From Bacillota bacterium (GTDB taxonomy: Bacteria; Bacillota; Limnochordia; JAAZLZ01), in assembly GCA_012522085.1 (NCBI GenBank), contig JAAYLE010000146.1, positions 1-63,655 on the forward strand: 63,655 nucleotides of DNA. Direction: 5' to 3'. Of this stretch, positions 15,750-50,883 are shown one piece after another. The notes under the pieces are model-generated. The model searched no databases, was not told the origin of the DNA, and saw only the letters and a program-made list of their open reading frames with translations. Position numbers and translations under genes: made by a program. Numbering within the stretch: the stretch's first letter is position 1; each line of letters begins with the position of its first letter.

Positions 15750-16225
15750 GCAAGGGGGCCACCTATAACTTCTCGGACAACTCTACTGATGATGCCGAAC
15801 GCGAAACCCCTTCGGACGAGGTAAGCAGCTAGTTTCCGCGCCGCCGCCTCGGGATCGTCTCCATGGTAGCGAGGCATCCTCTGTCGGGCCAGATCCCGGG
15901 CGATGGCATACTCCTGCTCATCTTCGGGACCCAGATCCGCCATCTCCTCATCGATGATCTGCCGGTCCACACCCTTAGCCAACAAGTCCTGCCGCAGCCG
16001 GTGATACCCGTTTTTCCGCCGACGCCACGCAATCCATTGCCGGACAAAGCGACGGTCGTCGATGTAGCCAAGACTTGTTAGCCTCTGCAGAGTACGGGCG
16101 ATGACCTCTTCGCCGTAGCCTCTGCTTGCCAGGTAGGCAGCCATCTCCCCCCGGGTCCGATCCCGGTGAGCAAGATAGCGAAAGGCCTTTTCTAGGGCAT
16201 CTTTTTCGGACTGCTCCACTTTCAT
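15746..16225 (-). CDS. recX: Recombination regulator RecX
   Basis: RecX-like helical repeats (ALRYL..RRDRT..E...L..KG). ATGA overlap with the recA stop. Confidence 0.85.
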
Positions 16226-17253
16226 TCCTTAGCCTCGGTTCCTTCCGAAGCAGCCTCCTTGGTGGCAGCGAGACCAACGGCCTGCCTGGCCTTAAGCTCG
16301 ATCTCCATGGCCACTTCAGGATTCTCCCTCAGGAATGTCTTGGCATTCTCCCGCCCCTGCCCTAACCGCAGATCGCCGTAGGAATACCAAGCGCCAGTCT
16401 TGGTGACGATATCCAAGGCGGCGGCGACATCGAGGATGTTGCCTTCCTTGGAAATGCCCTCTCCGTACATAATGTCAAATTCTGCTTCTCGGAAAGGCGG
16501 GGCTACCTTGTTCTTAACAATCCTCACCCGAGTTCTGTTGCCGATGGTTTCCGTACCCTGTTTGATGCTCTCAATTCGCCGGATATCCATCCTGACGGAC
16601 GCATAAAACTTCAGCGCCCTGCCTCCGGGAGTGACTTCCGGGTTGCCAAACATGACCCCTACCTTCTCCCGGATCTGGTTGATGAACACAACAGTGGTAC
16701 GCGACTTGTTAATGGCCCCAGTCAGTTTTCTGAGCGCCTGAGACATCAACCTCGCCTGCAGCCCAACGTGGGAGTCGCCCATCTCGCCTTCGATTTCCGC
16801 CCGGGGAACGAGGGCGGCCACCGAATCCACCACAACCACATCTACCGCTCCGCTGCGAACCAACGCCTCAGCGATCTCCAGGGCTTGTTCGGCGGTGTCT
16901 GGCTGGGAAATCAGCAAAGTGTCCAGGTCCAAGCCTAATCGTTGGGCATAGTTTGGATCTTGCGCGTGTTCCGCGTCGATGAAGGCAGCAATGCCGCCCT
17001 CCTTTTGGGCCTCGGCCATGATGTGCATAGCCAGGGTGGTCTTGCCCGACGCCTCCGGCCCGAAGATCTCCACTACTCGCCCCCGGGGCACGCCTCCTAC
17101 CCCGAGTGCAATATCCAAGGCTAATGAACCGGTAGGGATCACTTCAACGTTAAGCTTGTCAGAAGCTTCCCCCAGCCTCATGATCGAACCTTTGCCAAAC
17201 TGCCTCTCGATCTGCAGCAGGGCCAACTCCAATGCCTTCTGCTTTTCAGTCAA
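16222..17253 (-). CDS. recA: Recombinase RecA
   Basis: [27 protein letters not shown] (Walker A) and [32 protein letters not shown]. Start is TTG 17253 behind GGGAGGAG; the track start 17325 overlaps thpR. Confidence 0.97.
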
Positions 17254-17830
17254 GCCCCTTCTCCTCCCATCCCTCAACTTCGCCTGCCAACGGAAACTCG
17301 TGTAGACGAGTGTAGATTGGTCCACTGCGGGTAAGGGCGCTTTGGATCAGACTAACCCTTTCCACGGTAAACCGGCCCAGTTTGAGATCCGCTGCTTCTT
17401 TTAACACCGGGATGGCCCGGGCATCCTTTACTCGCCCGATGGTAAGATGGGGGCGAAATGGCTGCTTCTCGGGGGGAAACTCCTTCCTTACCGCTTCGGC
17501 AAGGCTGCACAGCTGTTCTTTTCCCTGCCCAACACCAATCCAAATCACCCTCGGTCGGCTGGCCGATGGGAACGCCCCGATTCCGGCCAGCTCTACCCCA
17601 AACTGGTGAAAACCCCGCAGTCCACGGTCGATCGATCCTGCTATCTTGTCTAGATCGTCAACGGAGACCTCTCCCAGGAACTTCAGGGTAAAGTGGAGAT
17701 TATGGGCTTCGACCCATTTGACCCTTTGCCAGCCATCCCTAGCTAGTTGTTCTTGCACGGCAACGACCCCTGGGGCAAGCTTCGGGTCCAACTCTACCGC
17801 CACAAAGGCCCTCAAACTGGCCATGAACAT
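17246..17830 (-). CDS. thpR: RNA 2',3'-cyclic phosphodiesterase (2H family, ThpR/LigT)
   Basis: Two HxTx motifs, HFTLKFLG and HLTIGR. Confidence 0.85.
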
Positions 17831-17910: not shown

Positions 17911-19299
17911 TCAGTCCTTAGACCCAAAGGCGAATCGCTCAAGGGTGAATCCACCTGGCAAAGTATCTACCTTGATCGTATCCACTGCCAAAAGTTCCAA
18001 TTCCTCCCCGCCGAAATAAAGCAAGGCCATGGAAAAAGGAATCGGTTCCTTGGCCTGGAGACTGCGGATCCCCGCCGCACCAGTTGTTCCCGCCCCAACG
18101 AGGACTCTTCCTTCTTGACTCTTCACGCCCAGGCGATGATCATGTCCATACAGAATGACGGGAACCTCCTCTTTGACCAGGGCAGCCACCCGATGGTTGT
18201 GGACAGCCAAGAGGAGGGGCTCCATGTCCGCAACTAGCCCGTCGATCATCCCCGCCATTTGCTCCACTTGGGCGAGGCTCATTGCCGCCGGAGACGACTG
18301 GGAGGCGCCCCCATCGGCGACGCCCAAGATCCGCAGGCCACTAAACTCAACCTGCTGACCGTCGAGCACCACCACATTGGTCCCTTCCCGCAGACGCCTG
18401 ACCACCTCCGGCGTTTCGTGGTTCCCGGGAACGAACAGGTAAGGAACCCCCAGCTCCTCAATTCTGTCGACGAGCCCCAATTCCAGGGGGGTGCCAAAAT
18501 CGGTCAAGTCCCCAGTATCAATGATTAGATCCACTCCAAAACTCGCGGCCACCTGTTGGATGAAGTCGAAAGCCGCCACATTGTTATGAATATCGGAGAC
18601 GTGGAGAACCTTCAGCGCCGGTTCAGCCACCCCCAATGGCTCTAGTTCCTGTACCCGTTCATAGAGGGAATAGAGATTAGACGCCAGGACCTGAAGTTGA
18701 TCGCCAAGCTCCCCAACCCGCTGCCAACTGTCCTGCAACAGGCCAACCATCCAAGGAGCTGCCTCCAAGACTCCCGTGTATTCCGGCTGGGCGAAGGCGG
18801 CGGGATCGAAGCTTAGGGCGACCGCGCCGGCAAGGAGCAGGAAGCAGGCCGCGCCCACGGCGAGTCCCCCTGTTAAGCGACGCCATGATCGCTCGCCAAT
18901 GAGCCATACTCCGAGCATCCCGCCGAGGGCCATGAGCAAGCATGCTTTTAGGAGGAATAACCCTAGGGCGCCCTGGGCTAAATGGACGAGGTGAACCAGG
19001 ACCTCCTCGGGGCCACCCGTCGGAAAGGCCATATCCCTGATCAAGCTCAGATCAATGCTTTCCAGGGTCACTTGCAGCGTTACCGGCAATCGATGGGTCG
19101 GCGCCTCCACTACACCTAAGGGAGGAAGGGCCAGGCGGGTTTTTCCCGCCAGGCCCGCGAGCAACTTGGCCCGCATTTCAATCTGCAAAGCACCAACCCG
19201 GTAGCTCAAGCTGCCGGCCAGGTTAAGCAGCAGGAGGGCTCCTACTAAGGCGGCCAATATGGGCAGGAGGCGTTTTTGGCGAGAATCGCTAATCATCAT
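17911..19299 (-). CDS. Membrane-anchored metallophosphoesterase
   Basis: N-terminal TM region followed by VLHVSDIHN, DTGDLTDFG, VPGNHE and GHDH motifs. Start is ATG 19299, forming an ATGA overlap with the cinA stop. Confidence 0.8.
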   Translation of the reverse strand: MMISDSRQKRLLPILAALVGALLLLNLAGSLSYRVGALQIEMRAKLLAGLAGKTRLALPPLGVVEAPTHRLPVTLQVTLESIDLSLIRDMAFPTGGPEEVLVHLVHLAQGALGLFLLKACLLMALGGMLGVWLIGERSWRRLTGGLAVGAACFLLLAGAVALSFDPAAFAQPEYTGVLEAAPWMVGLLQDSWQRVGELGDQLQVLASNLYSLYERVQELEPLGVAEPALKVLHVSDIHNNVAAFDFIQQVAASFGVDLIIDTGDLTDFGTPLELGLVDRIEELGVPYLFVPGNHETPEVVRRLREGTNVVVLDGQQVEFSGLRILGVADGGASQSSPAAMSLAQVEQMAGMIDGLVADMEPLLLAVHNHRVAALVKEEVPVILYGHDHRLGVKSQEGRVLVGAGTTGAAGIRSLQAKEPIPFSMALLYFGGEELELLAVDTIKVDTLPGGFTLERFAFGSKD

Positions 19300-20543
19300 C
19301 GCAGGTGCAGGCGAAGAAGATTGAGAGCCGCCTGGGAAGCCCGATACTTTACCTCCTCCCTCTGACCGGAGAAGGTATGCTTCTCCACCAGGCATTCGCC
19401 ATCGCGGGCTAAGGCCAAATAGACAAGTCCTACCGGCTTGGTTGGCGTTGCTCCCCCGGGGCCGGCAATGCCGGTGATGGCCAGGCCTAAATCCGCATCC
19501 CCAACTAATCGCACCTCTTTAGCCATCGCTTCGGCAACTTGAGGGCTGACTGCTCCGTACTCTTCCAAGAGCTCATCTGGTACATCAAGGAGCTCCTTCT
19601 TGGCCTCATTACTATAGACAATCAGTCCTTGCCGGAAGAAAGCGGAGCTGCCCGGGATATTGGTCAGCCGATGGGAAACAAGTCCCCCTGTGCAAGACTC
19701 GGCAACAGCCAGGACTAGTCCCCCTTTGATCAGCTTCTCGGCCACGACGCCTTCCAAGGTATCGCCGTCAACGCCGTAGATGGCATCACCCAATCGCTCG
19801 CGGAGCTTAGCTTCCAAAGGTTCAATCAACGCCAGGGCTTCTTCTGCTCCGGCGGCCGCCGCGGTCAGCCGCAAACGCACCTCCCCCAACCCCGCGTAAG
19901 AAGCAATGGTGGGATTGGTCTGTTCTTTGATAATATCGGCGATTGCATTTTCTGCCGCCGACTCACCGAGGCCCGTCAAAAGCAAAGTCCGGGATTTGAT
20001 CACCCGTTTCTCCCCAGTGCTGGTCCCAAAAAGCCGGGGGACCACTTCTTCCTCGAACATGGTCTCCAGTTCCCGGGGCACTCCCGGCATGCAAACAATG
20101 GTCCGCCCCTGATAACGAGCCAAAATTCCCGGGGCAGTACCTCGCCGATTGGCGATGAAATCAGCGCCCTCTGGCCGGTAGGCTTGACGACGGTTGTTGT
20201 CCGTCATCGGGCGGCCAAGTCGGGTGAAATAGGCTTCCAAGTGCCTAACGGCGCCCTCATCCAACACGAGGCGAGCGCCCAGCACCTCAGCCAAGGCTTC
20301 CCGGGTGAGATCGTCCATGGTGGGGCCAAGGCCCCCCGACACAAGGACCAGATCCGACCGGGACAAGGCCAGCTTGAAGGCCGCCACCAAGCGGCCCTGG
20401 TTGTCCCCCACCGTTTGCCGGTGGTAGATATCCACGCCCAACTCGGCAAGTCGCCTGCCTAGGAAAGCCGCGTTAGTATCGACGATCTCGCCTAGTAATA
20501 GTTCGGTCCCCACTGAAATGATTTCCGCACGCACATCCTCCAC
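19296..20543 (-). CDS. cinA: Competence/damage-inducible protein CinA (MoCF + NMN deamidase domains)
   Basis: AEIISVGTELLLGEIVDTNAAFL...GGLGPTMDDLT..., with a C-terminal AESCTGG PncC-type domain. Confidence 0.92.
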   Translation of the reverse strand: MEDVRAEIISVGTELLLGEIVDTNAAFLGRRLAELGVDIYHRQTVGDNQGRLVAAFKLALSRSDLVLVSGGLGPTMDDLTREALAEVLGARLVLDEGAVRHLEAYFTRLGRPMTDNNRRQAYRPEGADFIANRRGTAPGILARYQGRTIVCMPGVPRELETMFEEEVVPRLFGTSTGEKRVIKSRTLLLTGLGESAAENAIADIIKEQTNPTIASYAGLGEVRLRLTAAAAGAEEALALIEPLEAKLRERLGDAIYGVDGDTLEGVVAEKLIKGGLVLAVAESCTGGLVSHRLTNIPGSSAFFRQGLIVYSNEAKKELLDVPDELLEEYGAVSPQVAEAMAKEVRLVGDADLGLAITGIAGPGGATPTKPVGLVYLALARDGECLVEKHTFSGQREEVKYRASQAALNLLRLHLR

Positions 20544-20602: not shown

Positions 20603-22090
20603 TTAAGCACTCTTCCGAGACTCTTGCAACATCCGGCGGAAATCTGTTCCATCGATCCGTTCTTCTTCTATTAGGAGCTGGGCAACGCTTTCTAAGACCT
20701 GTCGTTCCTGACTCAGACAATTGACAACTGATTTTTCCGTCTCCTTCAGGATCCGATCGACCGCTTCATGCAATTCCCGAGGCGGCAGGTCCTCTTTGCT
20801 GACGATGCCTAGATGGGATAGGCCGCCAAAAACCATCTGTTTGGCAAGTTCGATGGCTCGCTCAAAATCCCCCATTGCACCGGTGCTCCTTGAGCCTACA
20901 GCGAGTTCTTCAGCAACAGCTCCACCGAGACAGATGGCAATTTGCCCCAAGATCTCCTCCCTGGTGTAGAGATAACGATCATCAACCGGCGCCTGCCTAG
21001 TATAACCAAGGGCTTGTCCCCGGGAAGAAATGGAGACCGCCACCACCGAACCAGGCTGCACATATTCCCCGATCAGGGCATGACCAACCTCATGATAGGC
21101 TATGCGCTTCAGCTCCTCCTCCGAGGGACGCCGCTGCAGCTTCTCGCCCATCATCACCTTGTCGATGGACTCCTGCAGCTCTTCCTTGCCGATGTCGTCC
21201 TTGTTGCGCCGCATGGCGAGAATGGCCGCTTCATTGGCCAAGCTTTCCAGATGGGCGCCGGAGAAGCCAAAGGTATCCCGGGCCAGTTCTTCCAGGTCCA
21301 CATCATCGGCCAGGGGTTTGCTCCGCATGTGGATCTTCAGGATCTGCAGTCTCCCTTCCCGGTCGGGCAGGTCCACCCGCACCACCCTGTCGAAACGACC
21401 AGGACGAAGCAGAGCCGAATCCAACAGATCCGGTCGATTGGTCGCTCCCACCACCAGGATCGCTATCTTGTCATCGGTGTTCATCCCATCCATCTCCACT
21501 AGGAGTTGGTTCAGGGTCTGATCGTATTCCAGATGGGAGCTGTGCTTGCCCCGTTTGCCCCCCAAAACCTCGATCTCGTCGATGAAGATCACGGCCGCCT
21601 GTTTTTGAAGCTTCTCCGCTAAGGAACGGGCTTTGGTGAACAGCGAACGAATCCGCTGGGCGCCCACACCGGCATACATCTCCACGAACTGGGACCCACT
21701 GGTGGCCAAGAACACTGAATCAGTGTAACTTGCGGCCGCTTTGGCCATCAAGGTCTTGCCCGTTCCCGGGGGGCCCACCAACAGGATCCCTTTCAAGGGG
21801 CGAATGCCCATTCTCTTGACTTTATCCCGATAACGAATGAAATCCAGCGCCTCAACGAGCTCTCTCTTGGCCACCTCCTGGCCGCCCACATCGGCGAAGG
21901 TGACGTGGGACACCACATCCAGGTCCTGGGATCCTCCCAACAGCTCAAAACGGCGCCCCCTGCCTTCGGTCATGTAATAGAGGAGGAAGGCCGCCCCTCC
22001 GAGCACAATGAGAGGGGTAATGTCGTAGCCTTGGGCGGCGGCGAAGACCAAGGTGGCCATTAGTCCGCCAAGGAGCACTTCTTTAATCAA
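20603..22090 (-). CDS. FtsH-family AAA+ zinc metalloprotease, short form without an extracytoplasmic domain
   Basis: Two closely spaced TM helices. Motifs: GPPGTGKT (Walker A), IIFIDEID (Walker B), RPGRFDR and HEVGHAL (M41 zinc site). TTG start overlaps the upstream stop. Confidence 0.85.
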   Translation of the reverse strand: MIKEVLLGGLMATLVFAAAQGYDITPLIVLGGAAFLLYYMTEGRGRRFELLGGSQDLDVVSHVTFADVGGQEVAKRELVEALDFIRYRDKVKRMGIRPLKGILLVGPPGTGKTLMAKAAASYTDSVFLATSGSQFVEMYAGVGAQRIRSLFTKARSLAEKLQKQAAVIFIDEIEVLGGKRGKHSSHLEYDQTLNQLLVEMDGMNTDDKIAILVVGATNRPDLLDSALLRPGRFDRVVRVDLPDREGRLQILKIHMRSKPLADDVDLEELARDTFGFSGAHLESLANEAAILAMRRNKDDIGKEELQESIDKVMMGEKLQRRPSEEELKRIAYHEVGHALIGEYVQPGSVVAVSISSRGQALGYTRQAPVDDRYLYTREEILGQIAICLGGAVAEELAVGSRSTGAMGDFERAIELAKQMVFGGLSHLGIVSKEDLPPRELHEAVDRILKETEKSVVNCLSQERQVLESVAQLLIEEERIDGTDFRRMLQESRKSA

Positions 22091-24540: not shown

Positions 24541-24616
24541 TGGTGGACCCGAGGGGATTCGAACCCCCGCCCTCTGCAATGCGAATGCAGCGCTCTCCCA
24601 ACTGAGCTACAGGCCC
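24541..24616 (-). tRNA. tRNA-Ala (anticodon CGC), CCA encoded
   Basis: Minus-strand sequence: GGGCCTGTAGCTCAGTTGGGAGAGCGCTGCATTCGCATTGCAGAGGGCGGGGGTTCGAATCCCCTCGGGTCCACCA. It folds as a cloverleaf with anticodon loop TTCGCAT, the G3:U70 alanine identity pair and a GTTCGAATC T-loop. Confidence 0.93.
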
Positions 24617-26840: not shown

Positions 26841-28628
26841 ATGGACATACCCCTCAAGACTTTTCCGATCACAGTGCCCATCATGACCTTCAACTGGGAT
26901 GCACCTCCAGCAGGTCCTGCCCAAGAGGACTTCACCGAAGAAGAATTGATCGACGACTTGTTTGCGGTGAAGTTCTCCCGGGATGCCATCAAGGACGTCA
27001 TTACCGCCATCCGGCAAGGCAGATGGGGAACCTGGGCCGACTTCAAGCTGGCCTGGCTGGCCCATGGGATCAATACCAAGGGGTGGGAAGATCTTCATTG
27101 TCCCCGCAGCTTGGGGGAACACTGGCGGAAAGTCGGGGTCGTCCCCTACCCCCATCAGCTGGACGTCCTCAAGACCGTAGTGCAAAAAATGCACGGCCGG
27201 GCCATCCTGGCGGATGAGGTGGGCCTGGGCAAGACCATTGAGGCAGGCATGATTCTGAAAGAATACATCCTCAGGGGCATGGTCCATAGAGCCTTGATCT
27301 TGACCCCCAGCTCCCTTTGCTATCAGTGGTACAGCGAATTGCGGGAGAAGTTCCTGATCACACCCTGGCTGCAAAGGAGCGACAAAGACTGGGAACGAGC
27401 GCCAATCCTGATCGCATCATTGGACACGGCCAAACGCTCTCCCCACCGGGAAATAATCTTGAGTCAAGAGTATGACATGCTAATCGTCGATGAAGCCCAT
27501 AAGCTGAAAAACGACCGCACCCAGAACTGGCAGTTAGCCAACGGCATCAAGAAGAAATTCTGCCTGCTGCTGACGGCAACACCGGTTCAAAACGATCTGA
27601 AGGAGCTTTACAACCTGATCACGTTACTAGAGCCGGGCCTGCTAGGAACCTACCGGGCCTTCCGCGAACAGTTCGTGGCGAACCATCGCACCCCGAAGAA
27701 TGTGGAGGAGCTCCGTCATCTGCTGGAGCGAACCATGATCCGCAACCGACGGGGAGTTGAAGGAATCCGCCTGCCTAAGCGGGTCGTGAACAACCAGGTC
27801 ATCGAACTATTGCCGGAGGAAAGGCTCCTTTACGATGGGGTGAAGGAGTTCGTTCAAGGGGAATACCATCGCTGTCTGTCTAGCGGAGGCAACCCCCTGC
27901 CCCTCATCACCTTGCAGCGGGAAGTCTGCTCTAGCGCCCATGCCGCCTACTATACTTTGGCCAAGATGCAACAGTCGCGCGGCTCTCAAGTCACGCCCCT
28001 GCTGGAGCTGGCGGCAACCATCGACAAGGGGGCCAAGCTGCTGATGCTCGAGGACTTGGTCAAGAGCCTCGGGGAAAAGGTGATCATCTTCACCGAATAC
28101 CGGGCCACCCAGGAGTACCTTCGCTACCACCTGGAACAGGCCGGGTTCCTCACCGTCGGTTTCGACGGGAGCCTGTCCCCAGGCAAGAAGGAGTGGATCC
28201 GGCGGCAATTCCAGGAGCACGCCGACATCATGGTCAGCACCGAGTGCGGTGGAGAAGGGCTCAACTTCCAGTTTTGCCGCAATGTGGTCAACTTCGACCT
28301 GCCGTGGAATCCAATGCGCCTTGAACAGCGGATCGGCCGGGTCCATCGGTTGGGTCAACGCAGGGATGTCAACATCTTTAATCTGGTCACCCGAAATACC
28401 ATCGAGGAACACATTTTGTACCTACTCCATGAAAAGATCGGAATGTTTGAAATGGTGGTGGGCGAGCTTGATGCCATCCTGGGGGCAGCCGATGGAATCT
28501 GGGAAAGCAGCTTAGCCGAGATTCTCCTGACAACGCGCGATGCCACAGAGCTTCGGGCAAAACTTGATAGTCTGGCCCGCGAGCTACTATCGAAGGGTCG
28601 CGAAGACCCGCTAATCTCCTTGATTTAA
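26841..28628 (+). CDS. SNF2-family (RapA/YqhH-like) helicase/ATPase, copy A
   Basis: GRAILADEVGLGKTIEAG (motif I), LIVDEAHKLKN (DExH), LLLTATPVQNDLKELYNLITLL, VNFDLPWNPMRLEQRIGRVHRLGQ (motif VI). ATG follows an AAGGAG SD. Confidence 0.9.
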   Translation: MDIPLKTFPITVPIMTFNWDAPPAGPAQEDFTEEELIDDLFAVKFSRDAIKDVITAIRQGRWGTWADFKLAWLAHGINTKGWEDLHCPRSLGEHWRKVGVVPYPHQLDVLKTVVQKMHGRAILADEVGLGKTIEAGMILKEYILRGMVHRALILTPSSLCYQWYSELREKFLITPWLQRSDKDWERAPILIASLDTAKRSPHREIILSQEYDMLIVDEAHKLKNDRTQNWQLANGIKKKFCLLLTATPVQNDLKELYNLITLLEPGLLGTYRAFREQFVANHRTPKNVEELRHLLERTMIRNRRGVEGIRLPKRVVNNQVIELLPEERLLYDGVKEFVQGEYHRCLSSGGNPLPLITLQREVCSSAHAAYYTLAKMQQSRGSQVTPLLELAATIDKGAKLLMLEDLVKSLGEKVIIFTEYRATQEYLRYHLEQAGFLTVGFDGSLSPGKKEWIRRQFQEHADIMVSTECGGEGLNFQFCRNVVNFDLPWNPMRLEQRIGRVHRLGQRRDVNIFNLVTRNTIEEHILYLLHEKIGMFEMVVGELDAILGAADGIWESSLAEILLTTRDATELRAKLDSLARELLSKGREDPLISLI

Positions 28629-28631
28629 AGG

Positions 28632-29486
28632 ATGATGACGATGGATGCGCCTATCGAAGACTTCTTGCAAAGATACCTTGCTTGCCGCGGCCTCAGCTGG
28701 CAAGGGAGGGAAAAAGCCCTGGAAGTTGAGCTGTCGGCGGAGCTGGCCGAGGCCTTGGCCTGGCAGGGACCGGCCCGGGTCCTTTGGACTTGGGACCTTG
28801 ATACTGCCTTGAGCAATCCTGGGGCCTTGCTGTTTGCCCCCAAGAGTCAGAGTCTCGAGCGGCTGATGGGCACCATCAACGGATTCATCACTTGCGGCCA
28901 CATCCCAAGCTCCGCCGACGGACTTTTCCGGCCCCATTTCCTCTGGCTGTTTCATTTGTGCTACCAGGCGCGGGAGTCCTGGGAACAGATCCTGCCGGTG
29001 GTCGTTGACCTGGTCGATGGCAGCATCGCAGGCATCCTTGAGGGAGATCTCGATGGACGCCCCGGAGCCCCGCAGCCCAGGGAAAAAAGACGGCTGTCCT
29101 TCCGCCGCGCCTATTGGCGGGGGTGTGTTTTCGTGAAGCAATATCTGACGGAAAGGGCTAAGCCCTGGGCCCAAAGGGCGAGGGAGGATCTTAAGCGAAG
29201 GCTCAGTGACCTTGAAGCCTATTTTGCCGAGCTAGGGGACGAAGAGAAAAAACAGACCCGACTGGAGGAGGAGAGCCTCCGCTTCAGCCCCAGAGTCCTA
29301 GTCAGCCTCCGTGGAGGGGCCCTCATCTATTGGAAGCATCCTCCCAACGCTTTAGCTGCCTGCGAATTCCCCGCTCAACCATTGCCGATAGGGGAGGCGC
29401 GGGCGGGCGCTCCCGGACCGTCTCATGCCGCTGCACAGGAGCCTTTGGCACATAATCCTCCAAGCCCAGCAGGCGGTGGAGAATGA
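28632..29486 (+). CDS. SNF2-partner protein A (YqhG-like by position and architecture; function unknown)
   Basis: Starts 3 nt after the SNF2-A stop. By eye it is collinear with the 377-aa partner of SNF2-B: both have F11-[LV]-Q-x-[YF]-L-A, a central [FY]xxx[FY]L..F...Y block, L..[AG]Y[FY].L..EE, and a terminal SL..GA block. The last roughly 55 aa (P/A/G-rich) are encoded antisense to the mrfA 3' end. Confidence 0.6.
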   Translation: MMTMDAPIEDFLQRYLACRGLSWQGREKALEVELSAELAEALAWQGPARVLWTWDLDTALSNPGALLFAPKSQSLERLMGTINGFITCGHIPSSADGLFRPHFLWLFHLCYQARESWEQILPVVVDLVDGSIAGILEGDLDGRPGAPQPREKRRLSFRRAYWRGCVFVKQYLTERAKPWAQRAREDLKRRLSDLEAYFAELGDEEKKQTRLEEESLRFSPRVLVSLRGGALIYWKHPPNALAACEFPAQPLPIGEARAGAPGPSHAAAQEPLAHNPPSPAGGGE

Positions 29487-31746
29487 CAAGGGCCGCTTCC
29501 TTGTCAGGTATCCGCCCCCTGCTGTCCGTATCCAGCTGAGCGGGGGGCAGCGGAGCGCCAACGCAAGAAGGACAGCCATCCAGGCAGGGACAGCCCTTGA
29601 TGATGTCTAGGGACGCTCTTAGAAGCTCCTCCATCAGTTGATAAGCCTTTTGGGCAAGGCCAATACCCCCGGGATAGCGATCGACGAGGAAGATGCTAGG
29701 CAAACCGGTGTTGGTTGCATCGACGATGGTGTCGATATCGGAGCCGTCGCACATTAAGAGGAGGGTCGCCACCTCGCCCATGACATTGGCCACTCCCAAG
29801 AGGCCCTCCATGGGACTGCGCCCATATTCCTGGACCTTTCTTAGCACCTCCCTGGGCGGAATCAACCAGCAGCCCCCCGTCTCGAGGGTGACAAGGGGCA
29901 AGTGGACCTTGCCATAGCCGATGTTTTCCCGGGTGTTGAACTTGATCTTCTTGAACATGTAGGTGAGGAAGCTCACCCCCACCTCTCCGTAGCAAAGGGT
30001 GCTCTGCCCCCAGGTCCGCTGTTGGTCGAGATGGAGGACTTGAACCTTTCTCTCAGTTATCGCCTGGGTGTAGTAATCGACGGGGGCCATACGGACGTAA
30101 GCGACCCGCTGGTCCACATCTAGTTTTTCCACCACGTAGACTTCCCCGTCGTGGATGTAGACCGCTTCCTCATAGAGCTGGGTGAAGGCGCTGAGCTCAT
30201 CCATGCTGCCGATGACCTCGGGACCATCATCCTTAACCCGAATGATGGTATAAGTCGCATCGGAGATATTGCGCAGGCTAAAGTCATCCGCCGGATAGGT
30301 CCTGCCCCGCCAATACCATTTATCCCCCGACAAGAGCAGCTGACGATCTTCGGCGAGGATGTCCAAGAGAGCTGGAGCCGAGGGACCAAACTGCAGCTCC
30401 TCATCGACGTGAATGGGCAGTTCATAGGCTGCCGCCCGCAAATGCCCCAGGACGATGTAGGGATTATTCTTGTCGATGACCGCGTTCTCAGGTGACCGGC
30501 CAAAAAAGTAGGAGGGGTTTTCCATCAGGAATTGGTCGATGGGCAGATCGTGGGCAATCAAAACGGCCAGAGAGTCTTCCGTACCCCGTCCGGCCCGCCC
30601 CGCTTGCTGCCAGACGCTGGCGATGCTCCCCGGAAAACCAACGATCAGGGCGGCATCGAGGCTGCCGATGTCGATCCCAAGCTCCAAGGCATTGGTGCTG
30701 GCCACACCCAGCAGTTCACCCTTGAAGAGCAGCTCTTCAATATTCCTCCGTTCACTGGGCAAATAGCCCCCGCGATAGGCTCGGACCATCTTGGCCAAGG
30801 AAGGGCTTTCCTTAGTCAGCTCTTCCCTGACATAACGATACAACAGCTCCGCATGCATCCGGGTCCTCGTGAACCCGATCACCTGGTGCCGTCCTCTAAT
30901 CAGTTGCACCATCAAGTCTTTAGCTTCGGAATTGCTGCTTCGCCGCAGGCCCGTCTCCTCGATCCGGGGCGGGTTCCATAATACAAACCATTTGCCCCCC
31001 CTAGCCGAACCGTCATCGTCCACTAAGGCCATCTCCTTCCCCGTCAGCTCCGCGGCCAGCTCTAGGGGATTGGCGATGGTTGCCGAACAGCAAATGTAGA
31101 CCGGTGAGGCGCCGTAGTAAGCCAGGATCCTGTCCAGCCGGCGAAGCACATTAGCCATATGGGAGCCAAAAATGCCCCGGTAGACGTGGATTTCATCGAT
31201 CACTACATACCTTAGACCGCTAAAAAAGCGGGCCCAGGTGGGATGATGGGGCATGATCCCCCCGTGGAGCATATCGGGGTTGGTCAAGATCACATTTCCC
31301 TCTTCCCGCAGGCGGCTGCGGCTGTTGCGGGGCGTGTCCCCATCATAGGTGCCGCAGTTGATGGGCAGGCCCTCTCCTTGCCAGCGCAACAGCCCCTGCA
31401 ACTGATCCTGGGCTAGGGCTTTGGTGGGAAACAGATAGAGCGCAGTGGCGCCTTCCTCTAGCAACGACTCCATCACCGGCAGGTTGTAACAAAGGGTCTT
31501 GCCCGAGGCGGTCCCAGTAGCCACCACCACATGCTGACCCCGCCGGGCGAAGTTGATGGCCTGGACTTGATGGCTGTAAAGCCCGTTGATGCCTAGGCGT
31601 TCGAGGGCGTTTGCCAACAAGTCCGGCAAGGGACGCTCCAAGGAGCCATACCGAGGAGGGCTCGGAGGTAGATGATGGACATGTTTCACCTGCCCCCGGT
31701 AATCCCGCCGGGAAGTAATCTCTTTGAGAAAGCCCTCCACATTCAT
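29323..31746 (-). CDS. mrfA: MrfA/YprA-type DExH-box helicase with C-terminal DUF1998 (MZB) zinc domain
   Basis: LYSHQVQAINFARRGQHVVVATGTASGKTLCYNLP, LYLFPTKALAQDQ, VVIDEIHVYRG (DEIH), CCSATIANP, WQQAGRAGRG, and a C-terminal GCPCLDGCPSCV cysteine cluster. Collinear with B. subtilis YprA as I recall it. Confidence 0.88.
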   Translation of the reverse strand: MNVEGFLKEITSRRDYRGQVKHVHHLPPSPPRYGSLERPLPDLLANALERLGINGLYSHQVQAINFARRGQHVVVATGTASGKTLCYNLPVMESLLEEGATALYLFPTKALAQDQLQGLLRWQGEGLPINCGTYDGDTPRNSRSRLREEGNVILTNPDMLHGGIMPHHPTWARFFSGLRYVVIDEIHVYRGIFGSHMANVLRRLDRILAYYGASPVYICCSATIANPLELAAELTGKEMALVDDDGSARGGKWFVLWNPPRIEETGLRRSSNSEAKDLMVQLIRGRHQVIGFTRTRMHAELLYRYVREELTKESPSLAKMVRAYRGGYLPSERRNIEELLFKGELLGVASTNALELGIDIGSLDAALIVGFPGSIASVWQQAGRAGRGTEDSLAVLIAHDLPIDQFLMENPSYFFGRSPENAVIDKNNPYIVLGHLRAAAYELPIHVDEELQFGPSAPALLDILAEDRQLLLSGDKWYWRGRTYPADDFSLRNISDATYTIIRVKDDGPEVIGSMDELSAFTQLYEEAVYIHDGEVYVVEKLDVDQRVAYVRMAPVDYYTQAITERKVQVLHLDQQRTWGQSTLCYGEVGVSFLTYMFKKIKFNTRENIGYGKVHLPLVTLETGGCWLIPPREVLRKVQEYGRSPMEGLLGVANVMGEVATLLLMCDGSDIDTIVDATNTGLPSIFLVDRYPGGIGLAQKAYQLMEELLRASLDIIKGCPCLDGCPSCVGAPLPPAQLDTDSRGRIPDKEAALVILHRLLGLEDYVPKAPVQRHETVRERPPAPPLSAMVERGIRRQLKRWEDASNR

Positions 31747-31767
31747 GACGCACCTCTCCCCACCATG

Positions 31768-32901
31768 TTATCCGGGAAGAAGTTCGTCATCAACGGGAGC
31801 AACCCCTTCCCCGGCACACTCCGCACATAAGATGGCCGGCCGGTCAATGGTCGTGATTTCTCCTTCGCAGACCGTGCAGAGGGGCTCAAGCCATTTGTTG
31901 CGCAAAGGGTCGTAATGGCCAGGGACGCACTCCCCGTCCCGCCAAAGCTCCACCTCCCAACGGGGCACCCATAAGTGGGCTCCACTGACTAATGATGCCT
32001 CCACGTGGACGGCCGTTTGCCCCCAGAGCTCTTGGAGCCGCCGCTGGTGCTCCTCCCGCAGCAGGGCGAGCCTCTCTTCATATTCCTCCTGGGCAGATCG
32101 GATTTCAGCCCTCAGGGCCAGCGCCCGGCGTCCGTACAACCTCCGGGTATCATCGGTACGGGCCAGGTCATAGCGAACATTGGTCACCGCGAGTTGGCGA
32201 AACAACTTGCGCAAGGACTGAAGTTCCTCTTGAGCCAAGGCTTCATAGTAGCCGGTCAATCGCTCCACATCCCGGGCGAGCTTGGCCCGGGCTTGCTTTT
32301 CTACTTCCGCCCGTCTAGACTCGATTTCCTCCCGCAAGTAGACTAAGGCCCGGCGGAACATGCGCACGGGTCCGTAGGCCAGGTTTTCCAGTTGAGAGAG
32401 GCTTTCCGCCTGGGAACGGATGCGGCGGGTCCTGGGAGGGTTAAAGCCAGCCGCCAGGCTAAGATCCAACGGCGGCTGCTTCGTTTCGGTGTAGGAATCG
32501 AGCCAGATGGTTGCCACTTCTTCAACTCGCTCATGTCCCAGGTAGGCGATGCGAAAGTTGAAAAGATACTCGCTCTGATAGATCAAAGCTTTGGGAACGG
32601 CCCGCCAGGTCCCTTGGATAGGGGGAAACGGTTCTCTCAAGGGAAAGATGAGGCTGGTTGTTCGACCCCGCCGGGACGCCAAGGCCAACATCCGGTCGAC
32701 CAGGGGATGACCGTAAGTTAAATGGTCCAAGTCGGGCGCCGACTTTTCCCGGGAAAAGGTGAATGACAGCTGCCCGACTCCAGCGAGCAGGGGATGATCC
32801 CCTTGCAGGGTGTATACTTCATCTTCCCTGCGGCAGGGAGCTTTGCTCAGGGCGAGGAAATCCTGGACAAAAGTGCAAAGCTCTTCTTCGTCTAGCCTCA
32901 T
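31768..32901 (-). CDS. SNF2-partner protein B: YqhG-like core + coiled coil + C-terminal CxxC-N13-CxxC zinc ribbon
   Basis: ATGA overlap with the SNF2-B stop. Long R/E/A/L-rich helical segment (about aa 190-290). C-terminus reads CTVCEGEITTIDRPAILCAEC (nt 31816-31878). Confidence 0.65.
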   Translation of the reverse strand: MRLDEEELCTFVQDFLALSKAPCRREDEVYTLQGDHPLLAGVGQLSFTFSREKSAPDLDHLTYGHPLVDRMLALASRRGRTTSLIFPLREPFPPIQGTWRAVPKALIYQSEYLFNFRIAYLGHERVEEVATIWLDSYTETKQPPLDLSLAAGFNPPRTRRIRSQAESLSQLENLAYGPVRMFRRALVYLREEIESRRAEVEKQARAKLARDVERLTGYYEALAQEELQSLRKLFRQLAVTNVRYDLARTDDTRRLYGRRALALRAEIRSAQEEYEERLALLREEHQRRLQELWGQTAVHVEASLVSGAHLWVPRWEVELWRDGECVPGHYDPLRNKWLEPLCTVCEGEITTIDRPAILCAECAGEGVAPVDDELLPG

Positions 32902-34607
32902 CCTTCCTCCTCCCCATCGAGGAGCAGCCGGTTCAGCCGCGATACTTGGCCCGCATCAAGACATGAACGGGCCAGCTCATCGCCCATGCGGGCGACCTCT
33001 CTATCCAGGGCATCTCCTTCCAAGGACAGAAAGAGCCTGCCCAACCGGTACTCCATGCTCTCATCGCTCCACTGGCCGAGCAGAGGGTCGATCTCTCCCA
33101 TCACCTTAGTGAACATCTGTAGTTTCTTGTCCAGGAGAAATAGGACGTGTTCCTCGATGCTCCTTTGGGCGACCAGGTTGACTCCCACGATCGGCCTGGT
33201 CTGTCCCAACCGATCGATCCGGCCGAGCCGCTGCGCCAAGCGCATTGGGTTCCAAGGCAAGTCAAAGTTGACGAGCAGGCGGCAAAACTGCAGGTTCCGG
33301 CCCTCGCCGCCCGCTTCGGTGCTGACCATGACCCGACAGCAGTCCGCGAACATAGCCACCGCCCCGTCCTTTTCCGCCTGGTCCATAGCGCCATGGAAGA
33401 GACAATAGTCTATGCCCCTTTCTCTTAAGGCATGTGCGATCAAGGCCTGTGTCATCCGAAAGGAAGTAAAGACCAAGACCTTTTCATCCTGGTGCTGGGC
33501 TAGAAAATCGAGCAGGGCTTCGATCTTTCTATAGCGGCTTGGCCTGGCTGCTAGACTTGCTAGGTCCAGGAAAGTCTGCCCCATATCTTCGCTCACCTTG
33601 CCTCTACTCGCCATGAGCTTCAAGGTCCGTCCCGCAGCCCAAGGGCTGCTGCAGATCTCCCGGAGGATGAGGACGAGGAATAATAGATTCTGGGGGCAAT
33701 CAGGGCTTTGCCGATAAAGTCGACGAAGCTGCAGTAGGGCCATATCGTAGAATTCCCTCTCCTGGGGGGTGAAGGGGACCATCTGCGTCATTATCCGCCG
33801 ATTAGTCAGGGGGAGCATCGCGGCCTTACGGCTGGTTCGCACCATCACCTCCCTCAGCAGACGGCGAAGCTCCGGCAAATTCCGGGGTGAGCGGCGATCG
33901 AAGGTGAAGGTGCGCCGAAACTCGCTGTAGGTGGCCAGCTGTCCTGGTCGAAGCAAGGTCACGAGATTATAGAGTTCGCCAAGGTCATTTTGCAGGGGAG
34001 TGGCCGTGAGCAGGAGTAGATACTTTTTGTTGAGCCCATCGACGAAGCGGTAATTGATGGTGGCCTTGTTCTTTAGATGATGGGCCTCGTCCACAATCAC
34101 CAGATCCCACAGAACCTGTCCGATCATTTCAGCGTGCTGGGGTCTTTTGGCCGTATCGAGGGAGGCCAAGACCACCGGACCTTGATGCCAATGCTGGGTG
34201 CTTCTGGCTTCGACGACCGGCAGCTTGAACTTGCTCGTTATTTCTCCCCGCCATTGGCTGACGAGGGAGGCCGGGGTTAGAATAAGGGCCCGGCGGACAA
34301 GGCCCCGGAGGAAATACTCCATCAAGATGACCAAAGCTTCAATGGTCTTTCCCAGGCCCACTTCATCGGCTAGGATGGCTCTCCCCCGCATCTCCCGCAA
34401 GACGGCAAAGACAGCCTTTTCCTGGTGGGGATACAAGCTTAAGTGGGGTAGGTGCTCCAGACACCAAAGGGATTCGAACCCTTTGCGCAAAGCTAAGAGC
34501 TCCGCCCGATGCCGGAGTTGAAACCAAGCCGGGGTATCGTAGCAGCCTTGACATAGATCGCTTAGAACGGCAAGTTCGTCGGGCCCGATGGTGGACTCAA
34601 CCTGCAT
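32898..34607 (-). CDS. SNF2-family (RapA/YqhH-like) helicase/ATPase, copy B
   Basis: GRAILADEVGLGKTIEAL, VIVDEAHHLKNK, LLLTATPLQNDLGELYNLVTLL, VNFDLPWNPMRLAQRLGRIDRLGQ. Paralog of copy A along the full length. Confidence 0.9.
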   Translation of the reverse strand: MQVESTIGPDELAVLSDLCQGCYDTPAWFQLRHRAELLALRKGFESLWCLEHLPHLSLYPHQEKAVFAVLREMRGRAILADEVGLGKTIEALVILMEYFLRGLVRRALILTPASLVSQWRGEITSKFKLPVVEARSTQHWHQGPVVLASLDTAKRPQHAEMIGQVLWDLVIVDEAHHLKNKATINYRFVDGLNKKYLLLLTATPLQNDLGELYNLVTLLRPGQLATYSEFRRTFTFDRRSPRNLPELRRLLREVMVRTSRKAAMLPLTNRRIMTQMVPFTPQEREFYDMALLQLRRLYRQSPDCPQNLLFLVLILREICSSPWAAGRTLKLMASRGKVSEDMGQTFLDLASLAARPSRYRKIEALLDFLAQHQDEKVLVFTSFRMTQALIAHALRERGIDYCLFHGAMDQAEKDGAVAMFADCCRVMVSTEAGGEGRNLQFCRLLVNFDLPWNPMRLAQRLGRIDRLGQTRPIVGVNLVAQRSIEEHVLFLLDKKLQMFTKVMGEIDPLLGQWSDESMEYRLGRLFLSLEGDALDREVARMGDELARSCLDAGQVSRLNRLLLDGEEEG

Positions 34608-36000
34608 CGCTTCTCTCCCTCAGCAGCGCGGCCAACTCCTCCCCTGCCCTCCTTACGTCGCCAGCCCCCAAGGTGATGACCAGGTCCCCAGGCTGCAGAT
34701 GGGGTGCCAGTCCAGCTGCGAGTTCCTCGAGGGCGAAATAGAGAACCTGCTTGCCCGTCTGCCCTGCAATGTGGCGGGCTAAGGCTTCGCTCGTCACCTG
34801 CGGAATCGGTTTTTCCGAAAGAGGTGAGTAGATGGGCACAAGGACGATTACATCGGCTTCCTTGAGGGCAGGTCCAAAATCATCCCAAAAAAAACTCGTG
34901 CGGCTGTAGCGATGGGGTTGAAAAACAGTCACGATCCGCCGTTCCCAGCCTTCTCGGGCCGCTCCCAAAGTGACTGCGATTTCCGTAGGGTGATGGGCGT
35001 AGTCATCAAAGATGAGGATGTCATCCACTTGGGCAATGGGCTGGAAACGTCGGCCTACACCCCGGAAATTGGCCAGGTGCCGGGCTATTTCGGGGAAGGC
35101 AAGGCCGCATTCGGCGGCGGCGCCAATGACCCCCAAGGCATTGAGCAGGTTATGCCGGCCGGGCACCTGCAGCTTGAGGGTGCCTAAGGGCTCTTTATCT
35201 TTCAAGACAAGGCATGATGCCTCACCGGCCTTAAGCTGCACGTCGCGGCATGTATACTGGGCGGAAGGATCCAGTCCGTAGGTGATGACCCTTCTACTGC
35301 CCGCTCTCCTCCGCAGCTGCCGGGTCCCTTCCTCGTCAACCCGCAAGATGAGGGCGCCATCGGGGTGGATGTTGTCCACAAACCGGGCATAGGTTTCCTT
35401 GAGCCGGTCCCATGAGCCGCCGTAAAACTCTAGGTGGTCGGCCTCGACGCTAGTGATCAAAGCGATGTGGGGCCGATAGCGCAGGAAAGACCCGTCGCTC
35501 TCATCGGCCTCGGCGACTAAATAGGGGCCTTGCCCATACTTGGCGCCTCCCTGCAGCTCGGCAAGCTCGCCCCCGATCAAGATCGTCGGGTCCTGGCCCG
35601 ACCATTCCAAGACTAAGGCCAACATGGCCGTCACGGTGGTCTTGCCGTGGGCTCCCGCCACCGCGATCCCGACCCGTTCGTTCATCAGTTCAGCTAAGGC
35701 TTGGGAGCGATGAAGGACGGGAATGCCTCTAGCCCTCGCACTTTCCAGCTCTTCATGGCGGGGGTCGATGGCGGTGGAATGAATGACCAAATCGACCCCC
35801 TCCAAGTGCCCTGGGCTATGACCTAGTTGAACCAGGGCCCCCAATCGTATTAGCTGCCGGACGGCTTCGTTCGTACGCAGATCGCAGCCCGTCACCCTTT
35901 TCCCCATTTGCAAAAGCACTTGGGCCAGAGAGCTCATCCCTGACCCCCCAATCCCCATAAGATGAATCTGATGGCCGCTGTTCAAAATCCCCAAAGTCAT
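34597..36000 (-). CDS. murC: UDP-N-acetylmuramate--L-alanine ligase paralog (MurC-type Mur ligase, copy 2)
   Basis: IHLMGIGGSGMSSLA, VAGAHGKTTVTAM, EADESDGSF. The 3' end overlaps the SNF2-B start by 11 nt. Confidence 0.8.
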   Translation of the reverse strand: MTLGILNSGHQIHLMGIGGSGMSSLAQVLLQMGKRVTGCDLRTNEAVRQLIRLGALVQLGHSPGHLEGVDLVIHSTAIDPRHEELESARARGIPVLHRSQALAELMNERVGIAVAGAHGKTTVTAMLALVLEWSGQDPTILIGGELAELQGGAKYGQGPYLVAEADESDGSFLRYRPHIALITSVEADHLEFYGGSWDRLKETYARFVDNIHPDGALILRVDEEGTRQLRRRAGSRRVITYGLDPSAQYTCRDVQLKAGEASCLVLKDKEPLGTLKLQVPGRHNLLNALGVIGAAAECGLAFPEIARHLANFRGVGRRFQPIAQVDDILIFDDYAHHPTEIAVTLGAAREGWERRIVTVFQPHRYSRTSFFWDDFGPALKEADVIVLVPIYSPLSEKPIPQVTSEALARHIAGQTGKQVLYFALEELAAGLAPHLQPGDLVITLGAGDVRRAGEELAALLRERSDAG

Positions 36001-49611: not shown

Positions 49612-50883
49612 TTAACAAGCCCTTTCCTCGATCCCTTCCCGACGGATCTGGGCGCCGACCGCCGCCAGCTTCCCTTCGATCCCCTCGTAGCCCCGGTCGA
49701 TATGGCCCACATCTTCCACCACTGTCTCTCCTTCGGCGGCCAATCCCGCCAGCACCAATGCCGCCCCCGCCCGCAGATCCGGCACCGACACCACCGCCCC
49801 GGAAAGCCTGCCCACACCCCGGATGATGGCCGTCTGACCCTCGACGACTATGTCCGCCCCCATGCGGCGTAGTTCGGCCACATGCTTGAGCCGGTTGTTG
49901 TAAATCTCCTCGGTGATGATGCTGATCCCTCGGGCGATAGTGGCCAAGGAAACAAACTGGGGCTGCAGGTCGGTGGGGAAGCCTGGATAGGGCCGCGTGC
50001 GCAGATGGAAGGGGCGAATAGGGCCTGCTGCCCGCACCCGGATCGTCTCCCGATCGAGGCATTCCAACTCCACCCCGGCCTCAAGGAGCTTATGGATAAC
50101 CGCGCCTAAGTGATCGGCCACCGCACCTTCGATGATCAAATCGCCTCCGGTCATGGCTGCCGCCAGCATGTAGCTGCCGGCTTCCACCCGATCGGGGATG
50201 ACCTGGTAATCGGCTCCCCCCAGCTCCTCCACGCCGTCTATTTCAATCTGGTTGGTGCCCGCGCCCCGGATTCGGGCCCCCATTTGGTTGAGGAACTCCT
50301 GGGATTCGACTATTTCCGGTTCCATGGCCGCGTTTTGGATGATCGTCCGGCCCCTGGCCAGGGCGGCGGCCATCATCAAGTTCTCCGTCGCTCCCACACT
50401 CGGGTAGTCGAGATGGATTTCCGCCCCCTCCAGGCGCTCCCCCTGAGCGTAGACATAGCCTTGATCCTCCCAGACCCGGGCGCCAAGGGCCCGCAGACCC
50501 CGCAAATGCATGTCGATGGGCCGATCGCCGATGGCGCAGCCCCCGGGCAGGGACACCCTGACCTTGCCCAGTCTCACCAACAAAGGCCCCATTACCTGGA
50601 TTGATGCCCGCATACTCTTGATCAGTTCATGGGGCGCCGTGTATTCCAACTCATCACGGACTTCGATCCACAGGCTGCTGCCCCGCCAATCGACCCGGGC
50701 GCCAAGGCTGCGAAGCACATCACACATAGTCTCCACATCTTTGATCCGCGGCACGTTGCGGATGCAGCACGGTTCATTGCTGAGGAGGGAGGCGCACATC
50801 AGTTTGAGGACGGCATTTTTCGCCCCGCTAACGCGAATTTTGCCCTTGAGGGGAACGCCTCCCCGGATGACTAGTCTCTCCAA
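49612..50883 (-). CDS. murA: UDP-N-acetylglucosamine 1-carboxyvinyltransferase
   Basis: [26 protein letters not shown]...RPID.H...FPTDLQ. Start is TTG 50883, 6 nt after GGAGGTG (the track has GTG 50892). Confidence 0.92.

Follow-up and report, generated by a model that had tools for sequence, protein, structure and literature searches.

A block of five tightly linked genes lies at the centre of the window analysed here, a 63,655-nucleotide stretch of contig JAAYLE010000146.1 from a Limnochordia-like member of the Bacillota. Two of the genes encode Swi2/Snf2 ATPases (SNF2-A and SNF2-B), each is followed by a gene for a smaller partner protein (partner A and partner B), and between these two convergent modules lies a gene for a helicase of the MrfA/YprA family. 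We think it probable that the locus is a chromosomal, vertically inherited cluster of Limnochordia-like Bacillota with two YqhH/YqhG-type modules, in which a motor and an adaptor encoded by separate genes act together as a RapA-like remodeller. The block is a housekeeping cluster and not a phage defence system, given its fixed core-gene flanks, the mirrored trees of its paralogues and its uniform GC content. It holds duplicated split-RapA modules beside the gene of an MrfA orthologue, and the adaptor of one module is of a long form not described before; we infer only weakly that the modules are functionally coupled to MrfA.

SNF2-A and SNF2-B proved 43% identical in an alignment of 555 residues (E 1e-137), which makes them full-length paralogues, as the initial annotation of the window had claimed, and the helicase motifs that it had quoted were all found in both translations, with motifs I-VI of the Swi2/Snf2 core intact. 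RapA chains were the best relatives of SNF2-B in the PDB (E 4e-44, over the ATPase core), and the SNF2 family profile aligned in hhalign with residues 113-634 of Escherichia coli RapA (probability 100%, E 2.4e-49). Judged by sequence, SNF2-A is a YqhH-type Swi2/Snf2 ATPase that matches the ATPase core of RapA only. The two SNF2 proteins scored 207 and 219 bits against the NCBIfam RapA equivalog NF003426, under its cut-off of 576, and they stop near RapA 635-690, with the Spacer and C-terminal part not on the same polypeptide. The N-terminal domain of RapA (residues 1-107), an autoinhibitory part that contacts the zinc-binding domain of the RNA polymerase β' subunit, appears to have no counterpart, the SNF2 profile alignment beginning at RapA 113; about 55 residues precede the core in SNF2-B and about 100 in SNF2-A (no Pfam match there). 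Partner-linked motors found elsewhere are longer, with 770-790 residues (L103 3651-6011, L105 3555-5930, L020 3770-6082), and their N-termini consist of TPR repeats (L103, L020) or a zinc ribbon (L105), not of the RapA N-terminal domain. The presence of TPR or a zinc ribbon in place of that domain in related motors suggests that the targeting domains of the SNF2 motors are exchangeable.

The partners had been described as proteins of unknown function, and profile comparison showed that they have relatives. Partner A matched the Pfam YqhG model PF11079 marginally (26.6 bits, threshold 25) and with its C-terminal part only, and its orthologues in loci L006, L007 and L010 are annotated YqhG. Partner B had no match in Pfam, NCBIfam or PADLOC, and a BLASTP comparison of partner A with partner B was not significant. 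Pfam searches of the five proteins thus recovered SNF2, Helicase_C and MZB as well as YqhG, but left partner B without a family. When the family of partner A was aligned with that of partner B in hhalign, the probability was 98.9% (E 2.2e-17, 200 columns), and members of the partner B family sometimes exceed the Pfam YqhG threshold themselves, such as P0036 with 36.2 bits. By these profile comparisons both partners belong to one family, in which partner B is a longer YqhG paralogue. An exhaustive HMMER search with the partner B profile revealed the extent of this family, with 83 representative clusters of mostly 350-560 amino acids; word-index searches with partner A, partner B or the family profile had given close relatives only. 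A genome scan with a 10-sequence partner sub-alignment returned 9 loci through one peptide pattern, and the phyletic census is incomplete to that extent.

The AlphaFold2 models of the two partners share the order of their elements. The model of partner A (pLDDT, the predicted local distance difference test score, 78, with a core above 90) joins an alpha/beta N-domain to two hairpins, a short helical one and one of beta strands, and it is disordered after about residue 240, a tail that is not conserved among orthologues (alignment A6). In the model of partner B (pLDDT 88.2, predicted template modelling score 0.74), the alpha/beta N-domain (residues 1-135) is followed by an antiparallel helical hairpin about 70 residues long (176-246 and 250-294) and by beta strands (299-339). 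The protein ends in a CxxC...CxxC zinc ribbon whose cysteines, C342, C345, C359 and C362, are near-invariant in alignment A2. Most members of the long-partner family in that alignment (P0005-P0036, columns ~650-950) have further CxxC repeats beyond this first zinc ribbon; the largest of them, P0036, has 662 amino acids, and partner B of the window is the minimal, single-ribbon version.

The model of partner A, built from an alignment that included distant family members, without the RapA sequence and without templates, was used for a Foldseek search of the PDB. Four significant matches were returned and all were E. coli RapA: 8T0L_F (E 2.4e-8), then 8SO8, 6BOG_A and 8SPG, the weakest with E 1.7e-6. 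The matches had a probability of 1.00 over 262-274 columns and a query-normalised TM-score of 0.44-0.50, and the next match in the list had E 0.37. Two of the four RapA entries are without the N-terminal domain, which places the match outside that domain. Profiles A2, A6 and A7 each put partner residues ~5-80 on RapA 712-793 when aligned by hhalign with the single RapA sequence. From this evidence we judge that the YqhG-family partners are probably fold homologues of the C-terminal Spacer and C-terminal domain (CTD) region of RapA, from about residue 712. With the SNF2 protein on RapA 113-634 and the partner from about 712, each pair would be a RapA-like enzyme split in two, in which motor and partner span RapA from about 113 to its end, with the break between ~635 and 712 and the N-terminal domain missing. 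A relation of YqhG to the RapA C-terminal region was not found in the literature searched and, to our knowledge, has not been described so far.

Several results weigh against this assignment or limit how far it reaches. The hhalign alignments of the partner profiles with RapA are individually weak (E 0.006, 0.16 and 0.0024; probabilities 0.4-12%), and they were used since the three profiles agree in register and the Foldseek match is strong. The Foldseek output comes without aligned residue ranges, and the placement in the Spacer/CTD region follows from these weak sequence alignments together with the exclusion of the N-terminal domain. RapA was not detected when the partner profile hidden Markov models (HMMs) were run against PDB sequences. 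Foldseek, which led from partner A to RapA structures only, gave nothing below E 0.7 with the model of partner B, where the long helical hairpin probably dominates the fold search. A single Pfam RapA_C match occurred among the partner-family members and is not used as evidence. Other points concern the mechanism. The RapA residues L216, V217 and L220, which bind the flap-tip helix of the RNA polymerase β subunit (PMC8501970), are not conserved in the SNF2-A or SNF2-B alignment. In E. coli, the N-terminal domain of RapA pulls the clamp of RNA polymerase open, and is required for this opening, and the cleft that opens is entered by the Spacer as a wedge (bioRxiv 10.1101/2024.09.28.614012). Spacer residue D744 touches the β' zinc-binding domain (PMC8501970). 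With the N-terminal domain absent, the modules could not follow the mechanism of E. coli RapA in every detail.

The association of each motor with its partner was observed well beyond the window. The partner gene lies directly 3' of the SNF2 gene in every locus examined (L001-L021, L023 and L103-L106), and these loci come from Bacillota metagenome-assembled genomes, Limnochordia, Clostridia DTU080, Armatimonadota, Anaerolineae and Aerophobetes. Natural fusions also occur: P0052 (987 amino acids) and P0056 (1007 amino acids) have the SNF2 part N-terminal and the partner part C-terminal, the domain order of RapA, and P0043 starts with SNF2 motif VI and goes on as a partner. Because the adjacency is universal in the examined loci and natural fusions exist, an SNF2 gene and its partner gene form a genuine unit like yqhH-yqhG, in agreement with the comparison drawn in the initial annotation. 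As in Bacillus, where HepA is another name for YqhH, an SNF2 protein with some 560-600 amino acids is followed by a tightly coupled YqhG-family protein in a housekeeping chromosomal locus. The window differs from Bacillus in that the pair is duplicated and convergent around mrfA, and in that the second adaptor is a long form with a coiled coil and a zinc ribbon, for which there is no Pfam model. We know of no function assigned to YqhH/YqhG-type pairs in Bacillus.

If the two proteins of a pair act together, the motor, equivalent to RapA 113-634, and the coupled, Spacer/CTD-like adaptor would assemble into an ATP-driven translocase of double-stranded DNA similar to RapA. Its substrate would be RNA polymerase, stalled or post-termination, or else another protein-DNA roadblock, which it would dislodge or remodel. 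Contacts to the target would come from the adaptor, just as the Spacer of RapA touches the β' zinc-binding domain, and two adaptors would give the two motors different targets. In published work, a yqhH knockout of B. thuringiensis was sensitive to ultraviolet (UV) light and helicase activity of YqhH was reported (PMC10054049), E. coli RapA was found to promote ciprofloxacin tolerance (PMC12871841), and YqhH/HepA is listed among the RNA-polymerase-interacting translocases, with B. subtilis YqhH called HepA/RapA and the cited evidence mainly from E. coli (PMC7385302).

The likeness to RapA could instead be only that of an old shared fold, in modules that would not act on RNA polymerase. The adaptors would then direct the motors to DNA lesions, to stalled forks or to nucleoid proteins, much as Rad16-Rad7, Rad5/HLTF or RadD work. 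The helicase activity and UV phenotype reported for B. thuringiensis YqhH speak for this alternative, as do the absence of the flap-tip-contact residues and of the RapA N-terminal domain (PMC8501970; 10.1101/2024.09.28.614012). The zinc ribbons and Cys-rich repeats of partner B and of many relatives are typical for nucleic-acid binding, and the variable N-terminal accessory domains of related SNF2 proteins (TPR, zinc ribbon) point to modular retargeting. We nevertheless hold it to be unlikely: nothing but RapA matched the fold of the adaptor significantly (probability 1.00), no solved structure is closer to the motors than RapA, the fusion proteins reproduce the RapA domain order, and YqhH/HepA stands in the list of translocases cited above, with the same reservation about its E. 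coli evidence.

The third helicase of the block had been called collinear with B. subtilis MrfA/YprA, and its alignment confirmed this. In a phmmer comparison with YprA (6ZNP) it scored 710 bits (E 3.5e-212), with residues 19-733 aligned end to end to 20-734 and small gaps only; the DExH core, the winged-helix domain and the OB-CON-MZB canopy with its four-cysteine MZB/DUF1998 domain are all present, and alignment A5 shows no variation at the zinc-binding cysteines C719, C721, C725 and C728. Against TIGR03817 the helicase scored 677 bits, under the cut-off of 874, a model that describes a different, neighbourhood-defined subfamily. These alignments establish the central helicase as a true orthologue of MrfA/YprA. 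It differs from the B. subtilis protein by a C-terminal tail of 74 residues beyond the aligned region, by the SNF2 modules that flank its gene and by the absence of a downstream gene for the RNase_H_2 exonuclease MrfB. A search (E<=10) with an MrfB HMM built from 40 downstream MrfB-like open reading frames (ORFs; Pfam RNase_H_2) found none, either in the window or among L001-L021. An RNase_H_2 gene lies directly downstream in 39 of the 80 best metagenome MrfA loci.

MrfA unwinds DNA in the 3'-5' direction at bulky or cross-link lesions, and the five genes might form one three-helicase machine, a single complex or pathway. It could serve, for instance, transcription-coupled or cross-link repair without Mfd and UvrABC, in which MrfA would be brought to blocked RNA polymerase by the adaptors. 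We consider this rather unlikely, although its case is not empty. The initial annotation had proposed the three helicases as a unit, and the layout is indeed kept in relatives. The full arrangement, with SNF2-B, partner B, MrfA and the convergent partner A and SNF2-A, was found in the window and in L001/L014, L003-5/L013, L006, L008, L015 and L016, that is, in at least seven diverged lineages, with partner B identity down to 22-31%. In L009 and L023 SNF2-B, partner B and MrfA are present and the contig stops at MrfA. SNF2-A marks the right-hand end in every case and is followed by differing genes, partner B and mrfA are on the same strand and 21 nucleotides apart, and MrfA is without its usual MrfB in this lineage, which makes another partner plausible.

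The same surveys count against any coupling of the modules to MrfA, including the looser one that we infer. Among the 80 best MrfA loci, 79 have no SNF2 or partner gene in the fetched flanks, and the one that does, L023, has the same synteny. Both modules occur without MrfA in L007 and L010, and module B occurs alone, again without MrfA, in L011. Genes for an unrelated GNAT acetyltransferase or hexapeptide transferase are sometimes inserted between the parts in full-layout loci. Partner-family modules outside the clade never adjoin MrfA, and the non-Firmicutes loci have single modules in unrelated contexts; in B. subtilis, yqhHG and mrfAB are, as we take it, apart in the genome. Moreover, murC and spoIIP are conserved equally as flanking genes, so synteny alone is no proof of shared function. 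Given the single case among 80 MrfA loci and the two loci without MrfA, the association is specific to one lineage and dispensable, and it was never seen arising independently; the conservation of the three-helicase layout, real as it is, amounts to one fixed core context.

For the RapA-like modules themselves, MrfA might be co-expressed with module B in this lineage and bring roadblock clearance and lesion processing together, but the linkage could just as well be gene order that was passed on with no coupling of function. A more specific version, which we regard as quite improbable, would be a hitherto undescribed transcription-coupled damage route independent of Mfd and UvrABC. In it, two split RapA-type remodellers, each retargeted by a different trans-encoded Spacer/CTD-like adaptor, would evict or open RNA polymerase at bulky or cross-link lesions and hand the DNA to an MrfA without MrfB, and one adaptor would reach out with its long helical hairpin and zinc ribbon.

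The gene content of the block had been likened to helicase-based phage defence, and an anti-phage system akin to DISARM, ARMADA or Druantia, with a RapA-like SNF2 protein and a YprA-family helicase, has to be considered. The PADLOC models BrxHI/II, DrmD, ZorD, DpdE, DruE and SngC do match the three helicases, with E values of 1e-30 to 1e-76, and both ARMADA, which pairs RapA-like BrxHII with a YprA-like helicase, and class I DISARM have the two kinds of protein in one locus (10.1101/2025.09.15.676423). These matches span generic helicase cores only, however, and lie far under the NCBIfam cut-offs (DrmD 252 versus 950 bits, ZorD 100 versus 1500). Neither partner matches any PADLOC model, and the locus as a whole matched no named defence system in PADLOC or NCBIfam. 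The initial annotation had noted that no methylase, nuclease or known defence partner accompanies the block, and the same was found in the relatives examined, where no methyltransferase, phospholipase D-type or other nuclease lies within 10 kb; a UvrD-like partner, which sets ARMADA and class I DISARM apart as well, is also missing. The helicase is collinear with MrfA, a repair enzyme, and a recent classification groups MrfAB with the repair/housekeeping members of the YprA family and separates it from the helicases of DISARM, Dpd, Druantia, ARMADA, BRIGADE and TALON (10.1101/2025.09.15.676423). According to the same study, YprA helicases of the defence branch are marked by an additional domain behind RecA1 or by a DUF1998 in two parts; the additional domain has no counterpart in the alignment of the central helicase with MrfA.

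The position and inheritance of the block complete this picture. Its place is fixed among ftsK, rodZ, UPF0182, spoIIP, murC, rimO and csp. The left flank is constant, with UPF0182-spoIIP-(murC), then ftsK and rodZ; murC is kept in L001, L003, L006, L007 and L008 and gone in L015 and L016, where spoIIP abuts SNF2-B. In a neighbour-joining tree the SNF2-A and SNF2-B orthologues form two clades with mirrored branching, which points to a duplication long ago, after which the two modules diverged side by side through vertical descent. The GC content of the block is the same as that of its flanks, and the block has no feature of a mobile island. The housekeeping flanks, the vertical co-divergence and the collinear MrfA orthology contradict the defence-like resemblance, and we regard a defence function as highly improbable. 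To call the block the only one in the window that is not housekeeping was likewise misleading, as the block itself behaves as housekeeping.

All five ORFs were called at the positions given in the initial annotation (Table 1), and its account of the junctions proved accurate: a gap of 3 nucleotides between SNF2-A and partner A, a 4-nucleotide ATGA overlap between SNF2-B and partner B, and the spacing of partner B and mrfA given above. An AGGAG ribosome-binding site lies 6 nucleotides 5' of the SNF2-A ATG. In the orthologue alignment, the partner A orthologues begin at the residue equivalent to Met4; the true start of partner A is likely this Met4, at 28641, and the gap to SNF2-A may then be 12 nucleotides. 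Two overlaps had not been noted before. The murC-like gene, on the strand of SNF2-B and directly upstream of it, overlaps the SNF2-B start by 11 nucleotides, for which reason module B probably belongs to the murC operon; the murC-like gene is operon context, outside the helicase machinery. The second is the convergent 3' overlap of partner A and mrfA, which measures 104-125 nucleotides in close relatives and is absent or 7 nucleotides long in L006 and L015. It leaves no intergenic space for terminators, and the transcripts of the two strands would be mutually antisense; the partner A tail that it encodes is low-complexity, predicted to be disordered and missing from distant orthologues. A promoter and terminator scan of the block gave nothing informative, and no GAAC-N4-GTTC (Cheo/LexA) box, sought as a sign of SOS control, was found in the whole window.

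Table 1. Genes of the block and other features of the window mentioned in the text (positions in the window).
Feature	Position	Strand	Length	Assignment and basis
SNF2-A	26841-28628	+	595 aa	ORF; Pfam SNF2-rel_dom (1.1e-35), Helicase_C (7.9e-24)
Partner A	28632-29486	+	284 aa	ORF; Pfam YqhG
MrfA/YprA orthologue (central helicase)	29323-31746	-	807 aa	ORF; Pfam DEAD, Helicase_C, WHD_HRQ1, MZB
Partner B	31768-32901	-	377 aa	ORF; long YqhG-family adaptor
SNF2-B	32898-34607	-	569 aa	ORF; Pfam SNF2-rel_dom, Helicase_C
Convergent 3' overlap of partner A and mrfA	29323-29486		164 nt	ORF coordinates
murC-like Mur ligase	34597-36000	-		Pfam Mur_ligase, Mur_ligase_M, Mur_ligase_C
Second MurC-like ligase	50828-52261	-		All three Mur ligase domains
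tRNA-Ala(CGC)	24541-24616	-
cinA	19296-20543	-		MoCF_biosynth, CinA_KH, CinA
FtsH-like protease	20603-22090	-		AAA/M41

Some features of the surroundings deserve mention in their own right. In one lineage, represented by L011 (11438-12853) and L012 (11429-12853), a protein of 471-474 amino acids with no Pfam match is encoded after partner B, at the position that MrfA has elsewhere, and could be an alternative downstream partner. Small acetyltransferase genes recur in several lineages, where they separate the convergent module A from module B or from MrfA (L006 11389-11826, L008 14024-14551, L010 3214-3732 and L106 4176-4697; one GNAT and three hexapeptide-repeat proteins), and they also adjoin both SNF2-partner fusion genes. 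The window holds two MurC-like ligases within 16 kb, which score 358 bits against each other: the one directly upstream of SNF2-B and another in an apparent dcw-type cluster with other Mur ligase genes. The tRNA-Ala(CGC) gene, the sole RNA gene found in the window, has a cold-shock gene on one side and, on the other, the gene of a P-type ATPase, the neighbour of SNF2-A; nothing pointed to an integrated element, and no search aimed at one was made. The genes cinA and that of an FtsH-like protease are located ~5-7 kb from the block, and an ORF at 16222-17325 lies downstream of cinA.

In summary, the modules resemble E. coli RapA in the ATPase core of their motors, in the fold of the adaptor and in the domain order of the fusion proteins, and they differ from it in being split into two genes without an N-terminal domain, in their unconserved flap-tip residues and in the long helical hairpin and zinc ribbon that partner B adds; RNA polymerase is a predicted target of these proteins. 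The link between YqhG and the fold of the RapA C-terminal region is the most useful result of this work. If YqhG is a detached RapA Spacer/CTD, then YqhH and YqhG would be the two subunits of a RapA-like enzyme that remodels RNA polymerase or other protein-DNA complexes, a proposal that can be tested. For defence prediction the locus is a caution: a RapA-like SNF2 gene beside a YprA helicase gene resembles DISARM and ARMADA by profiles and yet behaves as a core-genome cluster for repair or transcription. With several forms of adaptor (short, zinc-ribbon and long coiled-coil) and several N-terminal additions to the motor within the family, the exchange of parts would retarget the motor.

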